A stretch of DNA of 64,000 nucleotides, taken from the IMG/VR virus record IMGVR_UViG_3300032053_000004, positions 32,001 to 96,000 of that record; one strand, 5' to 3'. Source of the stretch: a virus. Its lineage: Duplodnaviria; Caudoviricetes. The translations under genes were made by a program, and so were the position numbers. The notes below the pieces were generated by a model. That model did no database searches. It saw nothing but the letters and a program-made list of their open reading frames with translations, and was not told the origin of the DNA. Of this stretch, positions 4,906 through 19,606 are shown piece by piece (the first letter of the stretch is position 1; every line of letters starts with the position of its first letter).

Positions 4906-5124
4906 ATGAAGGAAATTTTTTGCGATGCTATAATGAACGCGACTGATAACACTTCTTATTGTCGCGAACCTTCCGTTCATTTTTACATAAGCCGTCATCG
5001 TGAAAGGCACTCTCGTTGCGCCCGTCATCCTTTAAAACTATCTACCCCGTGGGGAGACGTTAATCCATATTTTTCTATAATCTCTCGTGATGAATACATC
5101 ACTCAAGAAGTCTTAGAATCATGA
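4906..5124 (+). CDS. small Cys/His hypothetical protein with C-terminal tag (YITQEVLES)
   Basis: ORF track; resembles 5121..5384 at the C-terminus. Confidence 0.6.
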   Translation: MKEIFCDAIMNATDNTSYCREPSVHFYISRHRERHSRCARHPLKLSTPWGDVNPYFSIISRDEYITQEVLES

Positions 5125-5384
5125 ATAGCTTGTTCACATGTATGTATCATGAAACCAATCACGGGCTGAAACCAAGGTTTGGTCGTGTGTGGACGATCGT
5201 ACGGAATGAATGTTCTCGTCCTCCTATTTTCTTTTATATAGTGGCTTCCGATAGCCAAAAGTATCTAACCTCAGCGTCCTCAAGAAGATATTGTTGTTGT
5301 GAAGATCATCCCATACATCATTCTTGGGATCCGGATAGAGTATCTCTTGATGAATATATCGCTTTTGAGATTTTAGAGGCTTGA
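5121..5384 (+). CDS. small Cys-rich hypothetical protein with C-terminal tag (YIAFEILEA)
   Basis: ATGA overlap with upstream gene. Confidence 0.6.
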   Translation: MNSLFTCMYHETNHGLKPRFGRVWTIVRNECSRPPIFFYIVASDSQKYLTSASSRRYCCCEDHPIHHSWDPDRVSLDEYIAFEILEA

Positions 5385-5415
5385 ATAGTTTGATTTTTTA
5401 TCTAAATTATAAATT

Positions 5416-5853
5416 ATGAAACCTTCTCAAGTCATTCAATCTTTACTTCATATGGCTTCAAAGCTTGAAGCTTCGTCTAACCCCGACCGGTCTTTAGTCA
5501 AAAAAGATTTGTTGAAAATAATTTCTTCTATTTCTCCTATCAAAACATCCGGGTATAGAAACCGAGGATGTCGTCCCGGAGGGAGTATTAATTTTACTAT
5601 TGATATTGAACGACCCGTAGACCCGAATGATCCTGATAGTGAGCTTGTTAGTACTGAAGTAGATATTGAAGCTGATATTTCCGATTATGATCCAGGTAGA
5701 ATTGATTGTGCCCCTGAAGATAGTTACCCTGAAGAGGGCGGGGATGTTGAGATTACTAGTATCACAGTTAATGGTGAACCATTTGAATTAACTGATGACG
5801 AATTCGAAAATGCGGTTTCAGAAGCCGGTTATAAATTCTCGAAACAACACTGA
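5416..5853 (+). CDS. KPSQV/SNPDR-leader protein with acidic payload
   Basis: MKPSQVIQSLLHMASKLEASSNPDRSLVKKDLLKII leader shared with 7302, 36905, 53010. Confidence 0.75.
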   Translation: MKPSQVIQSLLHMASKLEASSNPDRSLVKKDLLKIISSISPIKTSGYRNRGCRPGGSINFTIDIERPVDPNDPDSELVSTEVDIEADISDYDPGRIDCAPEDSYPEEGGDVEITSITVNGEPFELTDDEFENAVSEAGYKFSKQH

Positions 5854-6050
5854 AAAGTATTTGTTCGAATGTATGTCTAAAAACGTAGACGGTTGGAAGA
5901 ATTGTTCTTCGAAATCCACCATTTTCTACGCTCTTCCTCTTTCGCCTCCTAAAAAATTTCAACTATTCAGGAAAATCTGTACACATACAGATTTCCTCTT
6001 TTTCTTTAACTTCGGCCGGAGAATCGCTATAGAAAGTTATACTAGCAATT

Positions 6051-6115
6051 CTAGACGCTATCCTAGACGCTATCCTAGACGCTATCCTAGACGCTATTCT
6101 AGACGCTATCCTAGA
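6051..6115 (+). repeat. 12-bp tandem repeat CTAGACGCTATC x5 plus partial unit
   Basis: units at 6051, 6063, 6075, 6087 (one C>T), 6099; no spacers. Confidence 0.9.
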
Positions 6116-6125
6116 GAAATTCATA

Positions 6126-17278: not shown

Positions 17279-18567
17279 ATCAAGACTTACATCCTATTGA
17301 AGTTAGCATACAAAATTACCAATCTATAGATAACCTTAATTTTGAAATATACGGATTCACGTGTATTACCGGAAAATCTAATATTGGTAAAAGTGCCATT
17401 GTTAGAGCTATTTCTTCAGCTTTAGTAAACAACCCTGTTGTCGGTGCAGTCAGAAAGGGTGCTTCTTTTTGTTCTGTTTTAGTTCGTTCTAATGATTGGG
17501 AACTTATTTGGGAGAAAAGTGAAAAAGGATCTGGAAAGTATCTCGTTAACGGAAAATCATATGATAAAGTTGGTCAAGGTCAGATAGAACCAGTTCAAAG
17601 TTTAGGGTTTAAATCTGTTAAAGTAGGGAGCAAAAACACTTATCCTTGGTTGGCTTCTCAATTTTCTCCTATATTCTTGTTGGATGAATCCGGCCCGGCC
17701 ATAACTGACTTCATTTCTGAAGTATCTCGTTTAAATGTTCTTCAAAATTCGATCTCAATCAGTTTAAAAGGGAAAAAGAGTGCACTCGATGAAGCTAGGA
17801 TTAAGACACTTGATGTTCAAATCGCAAAAGATAAAATATCATCTTTAAATAAACTCGATGATTTAATAAATTTAGGTTTGGACCTTGAGGCTCAAGCCAA
17901 TTCTATTAGAGAGTATGAGAGCAAAATCCTTTCAGGTCAATCGTTTATTGAAAAAATCAGTTCTCATTCTAACAAAGTTAACTCGTTATCCAGTATTGAC
18001 GGTGTTAATGTTCCTGACGATAAAATAACTCCTCTTTTTGATTATTATTTTAAAGTCCATTCCCTTTGGAAGTTGATAGATAGCGCAGCGAATAAAGTTA
18101 TTTCTATTAGGAACGGATCTAAATTAATTATTCCTGATTTGCTGGAAAAAGAGTATGACACTTTCAAGTCTGTTCAAAGATTTGAAGGATATACTGATTT
18201 AAAACAATCGGTTTCTGATTTAGACAAGTCTATGGTCATTCCTGATTTAAATTTAAATCAGGAATTTGATGAATTTAAATCTATGTCAAATCTAAATGAC
18301 AAAATCAGAGTTGTTGCTGAATCTATCATTTTCTTAAATAAGAAACTCGACGTACCTGAATCGGATGCTGATTTTGATAATTTTTCTAAGATGTCAGTCT
18401 TAAATGGAAAAATTAAAGATATCACCGATGAAATGGACGATTTGTGTTCCTCGTTTAACACTTTTGATTTTGAGTTGAAAAATTTGGAAGAAGAAATTTC
18501 TAAAATACCCTCCTGTCCATCTTGTGGTAGACCTGTATCAGATAGTCATTCAACCCACGCTTCGTAA
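17275..18567 (+). CDS. SbcC/Rad50 ATPase, N-terminal half (Walker A, coiled coil, CxxC hook at the C-terminus)
   Basis: IQNYQS, ITGKSNIGKSA, Q-loop SQF, ends CPSCGRP; no Walker B. Confidence 0.8.
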   Translation: MNQDLHPIEVSIQNYQSIDNLNFEIYGFTCITGKSNIGKSAIVRAISSALVNNPVVGAVRKGASFCSVLVRSNDWELIWEKSEKGSGKYLVNGKSYDKVGQGQIEPVQSLGFKSVKVGSKNTYPWLASQFSPIFLLDESGPAITDFISEVSRLNVLQNSISISLKGKKSALDEARIKTLDVQIAKDKISSLNKLDDLINLGLDLEAQANSIREYESKILSGQSFIEKISSHSNKVNSLSSIDGVNVPDDKITPLFDYYFKVHSLWKLIDSAANKVISIRNGSKLIIPDLLEKEYDTFKSVQRFEGYTDLKQSVSDLDKSMVIPDLNLNQEFDEFKSMSNLNDKIRVVAESIIFLNKKLDVPESDADFDNFSKMSVLNGKIKDITDEMDDLCSSFNTFDFELKNLEEEISKIPSCPSCGRPVSDSHSTHAS

Positions 18568-18596
18568 ATTTAAATATTTTCTAAATATCATGTTTA

Positions 18597-19004
18597 ATGG
18601 GTTTCTTAATTAAAGAAAATTTATTATCAATATTTATTGATAATAAGATGGAAGGTGTTTTAAAGGTCAATTTGACTTTTAAAAATAACTCTCGTGTTTG
18701 TATTGCCGTTTATGACGGAATATCCATAGAACAAGCTGTTAATGTTACCGGTGATGTATCTTATAACCGGATGGAATTCATCAACAGTATTGCTAATGAA
18801 GTTAGCGACATCTGTGTAACCATTCTTGGGAGTGCAAATATAGCACTTCTTTCTGACCATGCAGAAAAAGAGTTTTTGTCTAAATGGGAGAAAGTCATAT
18901 TCTTTAATATAGTAAAAAGTTATTCTTTACATGAAAAAGTTTCTTATGAAGATGCAATTCAGGTTGTTAACGAGCTATACTCTATTCCAGTAATAGATGG
19001 ATAA
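18597..19004 (+). CDS. hypothetical protein with C-terminal tag (LYSIPVIDG)
   Basis: ORF track. Confidence 0.6.
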   Translation: MGFLIKENLLSIFIDNKMEGVLKVNLTFKNNSRVCIAVYDGISIEQAVNVTGDVSYNRMEFINSIANEVSDICVTILGSANIALLSDHAEKEFLSKWEKVIFFNIVKSYSLHEKVSYEDAIQVVNELYSIPVIDG

Positions 19005-19218
19005 TGTAAAGTGTTTTATGTTAACAAAACCTGTTATTGAATATACTGAAACTGAGTTATTTTCTATTTTAAATTCTGTTTCTAATGAAATTAAACGAAG
19101 AAATATTTTACTTGGATCTCCTAAAACTGCAAATAGTCCTAGTATTAATCTTCAAGAGAGTTTAAAAGTTCTCGTTGAAGTATTAGGTCCAGCTCTTCAA
19201 AATCTACAAAAGAAATGA
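18997..19218 (+). CDS. hypothetical protein
   Basis: ORF track, overlap-coupled. Confidence 0.55.
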   Translation: MDNVKCFMLTKPVIEYTETELFSILNSVSNEIKRRNILLGSPKTANSPSINLQESLKVLVEVLGPALQNLQKK

Positions 19219-19225
19219 GGCATAC

Positions 19226-19606
19226 TTGTCCGATCTTTCTCAGAATGGCAGTTGTGTTAAGATCATAGGTCCGGGGCCTGATCCTCAAGAGTTTACTCTA
19301 ACTTTCGATGGAGAGTTTTTATTTAAATATGGGCCGGAACGAGATATTGAAATAATTAATATTTTCTGGCATATTCTTGCGATCCAACCAGATGTTTTTT
19401 ATGTGAAAGATAATCCTTTAATCACTATCAGTTCCGGTAATCATTCTGATGGAACCGGAGGATCTTCTGTAGAAATTACAGATGGAAAATTTAAAACTAT
19501 AGGCTGTGTTGATACTGAACGCAGCAATGCGTTTTGGTCTGCTATAGCAGACAATTATTCTCAGTTTATTGATACTTTATTGACTAAAGACGTGGTTGAT
19601 GCTTAG
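19226..19606 (+). CDS. hypothetical protein with C-terminal tag (LLTKDVVDA)
   Basis: GAGG RBS, TTG start. Confidence 0.6.
   Translation: MSDLSQNGSCVKIIGPGPDPQEFTLTFDGEFLFKYGPERDIEIINIFWHILAIQPDVFYVKDNPLITISSGNHSDGTGGSSVEITDGKFKTIGCVDTERSNAFWSAIADNYSQFIDTLLTKDVVDA

Follow-up and report, generated by a model that had tools for sequence, protein, structure and literature searches.

The stretch of viral DNA analysed herein (the window; 64,000 nucleotides) comprises bases 32001-96000 of a 202,143-bp IMG/VR record, IMGVR_UViG_3300032053_000004 (Duplodnaviria; Caudoviricetes), referred to below as G000, whose completeness is estimated by CheckV at ~47%. The window codes for a large terminase (TerL), ribonucleotide reductase, an exonuclease V/Dda-like helicase, clamp-loader subunits, a primase, a split NAD-dependent-type DNA ligase, FEN, Mre11-like and PD-(D/E)XK nucleases, ThyX and a sigma region-4 protein. 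This content of terminase, replication and nucleotide enzymes identifies G000 as a fragment of a huge tailed phage. Between positions 4906 and 19606 of the window lie eleven open reading frames (ORFs) that end in variants of one short peptide, and it is this C-terminal tag that concerns us here. The eleven had been listed in a preliminary description of the window, and each was found at its coordinates with the ending given for it. We are highly confident that the tag is real, belongs to the peptide rather than to the DNA, is strictly C-terminal and runs through the whole phage lineage.

Each tail was scored with a position matrix of the last eight residues, for which a threshold of 7.4 corresponds to an internal false-positive rate of 0.05%. 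On the plus strand, a 72-residue orphan (4906..5124; score 18.1) ends in ...SRDEYITQEVLES, with the tag occupying the last 8-14 residues, and matches no Pfam or PHROG family. The start codon of the next gene, an 87-residue orphan (5121..5384; ending in ...SLDEYIAFEILEA; 11.9), overlaps its stop codon (ATGA). Further along the same strand follow a 163-residue protein (8048..8539; ending in ...TEEEIKTLDVLDC; 16.6) and three orphans, of 213 (8578..9219; ...VKTTSIVEG; 10.5), 96 (10353..10643; ...EKTMCLIEG; 13.6) and 126 residues (19226..19606; ...LLTKDVVDA; 16.9). The body of the 163-residue protein gives weak matches to phrog_28969 and phrog_12588, both of unknown function, and its single-sequence AlphaFold2 (AF2) model was unusable (predicted local distance difference test score, pLDDT, 39). 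A 128-residue protein (10916..11302, plus; ...KEIETAQVVDS; 16.8) is convergent with a 103-residue protein (11303..11614, minus; ...HEIAEVVDG; 14.9). Three other plus-strand tails are less regular. The 203-residue protein at 9722..10333 (...KLTEQIILS), already singled out as the weaker case, carries a borderline or degenerate tag, its score of 6.2 falling just below the threshold and being attained by internal 8-mers at a rate of ~9e-4. The 76-residue protein at 10647..10877 (...HKILSVVGG) is also sub-threshold (4.8), but it is a true variant, since the tails of its orthologues G010_133270 and G007_313419 are GVMES and TIMES. The 135-residue protein at 18597..19004 (...LYSIPVIDG), just after a conserved recombination block (RuvC-like, RecA-like and SbcC-like), satisfies the four-residue expression given below, yet it was not retained in the final matrix list. 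The orthologue in G005 (G005_76899) has the ending YVEQVMES, and a word-based homologue search with it returned a single near-identical sequence only. Searches of Pfam and PHROGs with ten tagged window proteins gave no meaningful family.

Such endings exceed expectation by a wide margin. Among the 262 non-overlapping genes of the whole of G000, 18 end in [VIL][VILM][DE][GSAC]-stop, as against 0.35 expected from the rate at which the same four residues occur inside those proteins (83 of 62,907 positions; binomial P 3e-25), and the eight-residue matrix recovers 27 ORFs versus 0.55 expected. Altogether, about thirty otherwise unrelated small proteins of G000 are tagged. The local flavour of the tag is Txx[VL][VL][DE][GSAC], with T at -7, V, L or I at -3 and G, S, A or C at -1, the last residue being -1. 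The tag had been placed at 4906-19606; eleven copies are indeed there, but most of those in G000 lie upstream of the window, at 2.5-25 kb of the genome, in an arm of 51% G+C. The G+C content is ~51% at genome 1-35 kb and 33-40% over most of the remainder. Because most copies are in the G+C-rich arm and others in the window, the tag spans two very different base compositions, and its presence in both compartments speaks against a chimeric assembly. On a finer scale, values of 50-58% are reached in genome 1-35 kb, of which window 1-3000 is the edge, and again in genome 125-135 kb.

Several observations bear on the level at which the tag is constrained. In the tagged genes of G000, codons vary and TGA, TAG and TAA are all used as stops, in agreement with the earlier view that the peptide rather than a DNA repeat is conserved. 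In G001 (labels of this type denote related IMG/VR virus genomes or records, and L-numbers denote loci taken from such records), the terminal Ser is encoded by TCN in 77 cases and by AGY in 16, the four Val codons are used in roughly equal numbers at -7, with GTC and GTG preferred at -4, and both Glu codons are found; selection thus acts on the peptide. The motif is also bound to the end of the chain, [VI]M[ED]S being terminal 62 times and internal 4 times in G001 proteins. When 136 tagged proteins were stripped of their last 12 residues and compared all against all by BLASTP, they fell into 131 components, so that the bodies are unrelated, as first proposed, and a single paralogue family is rejected. 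Most of the 60 largest tagged proteins (56) lack any Pfam family; of the other four, two are ankyrin-repeat proteins and two give a marginal match to a sugar-dehydrogenase domain; the ten largest of G001 match no meaningful Pfam or PHROGs family. The two ankyrin-repeat proteins (~155 residues; Pfam) belong to the relative G010 (L211:1146-1619 and L210:8420-8881, both minus) and have the tail ...VQKVMSA. As protein-binding scaffolds with a common tail, they are reminiscent of adaptor proteins.

The tails are poor in Pro and Gly, many begin with an S/T-x-E-E capping box, and in G001 and G007 they show a large hydrophobic moment when taken as helices. Their likely conformation is a short amphipathic helix. 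In all, the tag can be described as a short, probably helical peptide of 8-14 residues, hydrophobic at -8, -7, -4 and -3, usually acidic at -2 and small at -1, followed by the free carboxylate. It is the orphan accessory genes of a single genome region that bear the tag, and the conserved core enzymes lack it, as had been noticed at the outset. Thus, the proposal of a phage-wide C-terminal address stands insofar as the tag behaves as an address throughout the lineage, but within a genome it is limited to the orphan accessory genes of that one region. The tag is maintained by selection on a large, fast-evolving set of such genes in one clade of huge phages, and is very likely an address read by a common partner; it may serve as a degron, as a docking motif for a hub or as a localisation signal, the three readings offered in the preliminary description. 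Literature searches on the motif, on C-terminal motifs of jumbo phages and on DUF2201 disclosed no published description of such a tag.

No close relatives of G000 were found among GenBank phages, while many are present in IMG/VR. Complete relatives have 80 to 170 tagged proteins each. G001 (complete, 436 kb; TerL 63% identical) has ~100 ORFs ending in [VI]xx[VI]M[ED][SA], and the four-residue motif terminates 68 of its 648 genes as against 1.1 expected (P 2e-95). The strict form in these TerL relatives, [VI]xx[VI]M[ED]S, is matched 80 times in G001, 35 times in G006, 91 times in G007 and 25 times in G010 (all complete, 377-436 kb), where ~1 is expected in each; in G007, Met occupies -3 in 174 of the 586 genes encoding fewer than 300 residues (30%). 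The flavour of G000 itself is shared with its nearest relatives, L246 (record G033; TerL 64% identical) and L252. Terminal tripeptides found include MES, MDS, VDS, LES and VEG. Six tagged or weak-variant proteins of G000 have homologues in other genomes, and in five of these six families the homologue keeps a tail in the flavour of its own genome, with bodies only 21-52% identical. In another relative, G031 (the contig of L244), the TerL match at 199-204 kb is in three pieces within one 1,600-residue frame, which suggests intein insertions in the terminase gene.

A related subclade lacks the tag. Used as a DNA pattern, V-M-E-S-stop occurs in 6-16 copies in each of G006, G007 and G010, and is missing from 18 of the 25 records screened; in these 18, TerL is 41-50% identical, and five of them are complete or nearly complete genomes; G020 and G022, in the same range of TerL identity, have one isolated match each. 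G011, a member of the sister subclade and the one tagless genome whose C-termini were examined genome-wide (380 of 407 kb), contains not one strict match to the tag, nor do its C-termini show a positional signal.

A phyletic profile of the two groups drew attention to a candidate reader. Fifty-five genes of G001 are shared with G006, G007 and G010 but have no counterpart in G011, and two of them sit in the middle of tag arrays: a 374-residue AAA_5/MoxR-like ATPase and a 495-residue protein composed of DUF2201_N, a putative zincin metallopeptidase, and the vWA-like DUF2201 (PF13203 and PF09967 both match in G001). The ATPase belongs to the AAA_5/MoxR clade (PF07728; 30.3 bits in G001 and 26.2 bits in G000). 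All tagged genomes in which the region is covered (G000, G001, G002, G003, G006, G007, G009 and G010) contain the pair, and in seven of the seven genomes examined it lies inside the tag-rich region; it is missing from all 18 pattern-free records and from G020 and G022, among which six are complete or nearly complete. In G000, the pair is located ~30-32 kb upstream of the window on the minus strand, with the ATPase at genome 1093-2217 (AAA_5 domain at 1849-2124) and the peptidase at genome 1-875. The peptidase gene starts at 875 and is truncated by the contig end, with DUF2201_N at 459-683 and an intact HEGYH. Domain searches did not bring the pair to light: profile searches of G000 with PF07726 (AAA_3) and PF13519 (VWA_2) missed it, PF07726 giving sub-threshold matches only.

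Both halves of the peptidase retain their characteristic motifs. DUF2201 is a family of 6,867 representatives, and in 76 homologues H112, H117 and the metal ion-dependent adhesion site (MIDAS) residues D368, S370, S372, T428 and D453 are invariant, while H108 and E109 of the HExxH motif are at least 90% conserved; the MIDAS pattern DxSxS...T...D is intact. An AF2 model of the protein has a pLDDT of 91, and Foldseek matches its C-terminal half to ligand-binding vWA/I-domains such as those of CMG2, LFA-1 and CLCA1. A complex prediction for the G001 protein with a 67-residue tagged protein, Mg and Zn, run without controls, scored 0.00 and argues neither for nor against binding. A vWA MIDAS can bind extended peptides, and MoxR-vWA pairs have been described as a chaperone with its co-chaperone (PMC7159879, Kaur et al. 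2020). The pair of a MoxR ATPase with a metallopeptidase-vWA protein has been noted in jumbo phages, where no substrate, tag or client set was described (PMC7824862, Iyer et al. 2021). A second cluster of G001, at L033:12050-16057 (332-336 kb), encodes a 648-residue vWA protein, a 385-residue protein of no family and a 184-residue Prok-JAB peptidase, and has upstream of it a 771-residue vWA protein with a homologue in G003. The rest of this cluster has no match in G000 or G002-G005, and it was dropped as a candidate reader because it is not common to the other tagged genomes.

Tags beside the pair are also seen in separate lineages of huge phages. Loci of 21 kb around DUF2201 homologues were taken from IMG/VR; they were chosen for having DUF2201, and tails other than the VMES type were spotted by eye. 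Loci with at least 45% DUF2201 identity contain 2-12 VMES-type tags each, all ORFs being counted. At 34-35% identity, L250 and L251 have tails of the form [IV]I[KR]x[IV][IV][ED]-stop (eight terminal, none internal), and at 27-36% identity, L255-L295 have [KR][LI]xx[LY]xxF[SL]-stop (45 terminal versus 8 internal), a looser form of which is carried by 22 unrelated families. No TerL related to that of G000 was detected in these other-tail phages, so that they represent separate lineages with the pair and, beside it, a tag dialect of their own. Of 80 loci, 66 contain an AAA_5 gene along with DUF2201.

From this co-occurrence, the best-supported specific hypothesis is that the tag is read by the phage's own pair of MoxR-like ATPase and vWA-metallopeptidase. 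We advance it tentatively, at somewhat less than an even chance. In such a scheme, the vWA/MIDAS domain would capture the tail through its acidic residue or terminal carboxylate and its hydrophobic face, the ATPase would remodel or pull the captured protein, and the peptidase would clip or degrade it. The whole tagged class might thereby be handled as one group: its members could themselves be removed or activated at set times, or they may be adaptors that carry bound targets to the machine.

A number of observations weigh against this assignment. The link between tag and pair is circumstantial. Within the TerL clade, the presence and absence of both amount to one evolutionary split, and 54 other genes share the profile, including a 501-residue classical AAA ATPase, a BRCT protein, RtcB and a sigma factor. 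The other-flavour tags were seen by eye, and only in 21-kb loci chosen for DUF2201. The N4-like phage JWAlpha carries a homologous pair (gp24, AAA; gp25, DUF2201), and the 66 coding sequences in the first 40 of its 72 kb have no shared ending; the pair is thus not always accompanied by a tag class. In G007, N, K or Q frequently replaces the acidic residue at -2, so that the MIDAS would not find an acidic ligand in every tail, and the helical-moment signal is missing in the 16 tails of G000 itself.

Other readers were weighed as well. The tail may be read by a host factor, either as a degron that directs proteins to ClpXP, Lon, FtsH or a similar host protease or as a docking motif for a host hub, with flavours that would track the hosts; we regard this as unlikely. 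Strictly terminal tags are typical of bacterial degrons (ssrA and related), and the flavours do differ among phages of very different G+C (G000 35-41%, G001 50%, G007 40%), the link of the tail to the proposed phage-encoded reader being circumstantial. A host reader, however, fits poorly with a sister subclade in which loss of the tag coincides with loss of a phage gene pair, and with an end made of an acidic and a small residue, unlike the non-polar C-degrons of the ssrA type. A different phage protein with the same phyletic pattern, for example the ~500-residue classical AAA ATPase (G000 genome 162474-164000), is a still less likely reader, although 55 genes have that presence/absence profile. 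The ATPase is found in the tagged G006, G007, G008, G010 and G029 (E 1e-183 to 1e-199), and records without the VMES pattern give only weak, generic AAA matches to it. Its gene, on the other hand, is located in the late or structural section, at a great distance from the tag arrays, and an association with other-flavour tags in unrelated lineages has been seen for the DUF2201 pair.

Three further explanations are weaker still. As a virion-loading signal, the tail would deliver its protein into the procapsid, perhaps by way of the MoxR/vWA-peptidase, for injection with the DNA. C-terminal cargo-loading peptides exist in encapsulins and may offer a precedent, and a role of the pair in virion assembly and structural-protein processing has been proposed (PMC7824862). 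We nevertheless consider loading improbable, as 80 to 170 small orphan proteins per genome far exceed the known packaged sets, and the tagged genes cluster with replication and accessory genes and not with head genes. It is equally improbable that nothing reads the tail, which would then be an intrinsic element (a C-terminal helix cap or protection from exoproteolysis) or the relic of one ancient paralogue family. The helical look of the tails and their capping boxes would suit an intrinsic element, and in a few cases tagged genes of like size stand in tandem; but V-M-E-S is near-invariant on more than 100 bodies (48-316 residues) without detectable mutual similarity, and neither the strict terminal position nor the coherent switch of flavour between the genomes of orthologues is easily explained in this way. 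It is scarcely credible that the ending is a nucleic-acid artefact, produced by a terminator or by a Shine-Dalgarno or coupling signal that serves translation of the next gene. Many tags do end in TCA-TGA or GGA-TGA with the ATG of the next gene overlapping the stop, but the codon usage described above (TCN and AGY for Ser, four Val codons at -7, both Glu codons, three stops) led us to reject the coupling reading, and some tags stand at the ends of convergent genes or ahead of long spacers.

The tag was compared with known C-terminal signals. The preliminary description could assign it to no described system; a candidate receptor, the pair of MoxR-like ATPase and metallopeptidase-vWA protein, is now at hand from co-occurrence. 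Its suggested likeness to SSB-Ct or PDZ ligands was not borne out: neither the acidic run plus IPF of SSB-Ct nor the QL[SD]LF of beta-clamp tails appears in the position logos, the last residue is S, G, A or C after D or E and not hydrophobic as in PDZ-ligand or tail-specific protease signals, and no PDZ domain (PF13180) was found in G000-G003 and G005, control genomes having given matches. Like the ssrA tag and the ClpX-binding XB tail of SspB, the tail is a short C-terminal peptide portable among unrelated proteins, those two being read by an AAA+ machine or adaptor. However, ssrA-type tags have a non-polar end (LAA) and are added or read by the host, whereas the present tail has an acidic and small end, is encoded gene by gene in the phage genome and has a MoxR/vWA machine, not Clp or Lon, as its candidate reader. 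An ssrA-type ClpXP C-degron was rejected on this ground, the ends being MES, MDS, VDS, LES and VEG in place of a non-polar tripeptide such as LAA.

Peptide-processing systems of the FxSxx-COOH type were reportedly treated by Haft and Basu in 2011. The FxSxx-COOH/vWA-MoxR systems (PMC7159879) resemble the present one in combining small, fast-diverging proteins with a conserved C-terminal peptide, a zincin, MoxR and vWA. Those systems act in bacterial conflicts, have a single precursor or a few of them and include a third component, VMAP, and often a radical-SAM enzyme, whereas here tens to more than 100 full-size proteins are tagged per genome and one protein combines the peptidase with the vWA domain. 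The tails fit none of the four types described (FxSxx, RxD, acidic and FtsH-associated; PMC7159879). Closest in gene content are the pair of group 2.2 jumbo phages (PMC7824862) and gp24/gp25 of N4-like phages, which consist of the same two genes, an AAA_5/MoxR-like ATPase followed by an HExxH peptidase-vWA fusion; for the jumbo-phage pair a virion-assembly role was proposed, whereas here the pair is embedded in arrays of tagged orphans. Rea1/Midasin and CbbQO likewise join a MoxR-clade ATPase to a MIDAS vWA domain, the MIDAS gripping an acidic residue of the client while the motor pulls, and the conserved acidic residue near the end of the tag recalls their clients. Those clients are single, specific complexes (pre-60S assembly factors and Rubisco), with no peptidase and no portable terminal tag. 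The E-block of Legionella Dot/Icm substrates and the PRANC/F-box of poxvirus ankyrin proteins also place one terminal signal on many unrelated, fast-evolving accessory proteins; the likeness is conceptual only, as these signals serve secretion or recruitment of a ubiquitin ligase, neither of which is evident here.

Other features of the window deserve mention. Two ORFs among the tagged genes, at 5416-5853 and 7302-7748, share an N-terminal module of ~40 residues, starting with MKPSQVIQSLLHMASKLEASSNPDRSLV... and MKPVQVAQALKVIADKIKASKNPDRNLV..., respectively, and then diverge, and several G000 genes give recurring BLAST matches of only ~40 residues to G002, G003 and G005. This is a second shared module in G000 besides the C-terminal tag. 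A 305-residue Cys-rich predicted lipoprotein (6126-7043, minus; signal peptide with LAGC) also lies amid the tagged genes and has a homologue in G002 only. A 400-residue gene product (26278-27480, minus) is conserved in all relatives at 63-68% identity. The NAD-dependent DNA ligase appears to be split into one gene for the adenylation and OB domains and another for the HhH and BRCT domains, the halves lying ~1.4 kb apart on opposite strands (37574-38695, minus, and 40052-40849, plus).

It is conceivable, although on balance doubtful, that huge phages run their own tag-directed protein handling, in which a peptide on 15-30% of their genes, nearly all of them orphan and accessory, would be recognized by the phage's MoxR ATPase and vWA-metallopeptidase, with dialects of tag and reader that co-evolve in different lineages. 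The tagged proteins might then be timed substrates or interchangeable adaptors that, like the ankyrin members, deliver host targets for remodelling or destruction. Such a system, if real, would be the phage counterpart of degrons or of F-box adaptors. Huge-phage genomes consist for the most part of orphan genes, which have so far offered almost no handle; with a tag on a fifth of the genes of a phage, a functional class can be defined in the absence of homology, and its tail is portable and can be used in pull-downs and reporter fusions. A testable client set is also provided for the MoxR/vWA-peptidase module of jumbo and N4-like phages, for which a substrate has so far been lacking. Should the reader be confirmed, the tag and its pair would constitute the first virus-encoded, proteome-scale tagging system in viruses that infect bacteria, and potentially an orthogonal degron or adaptor tool.

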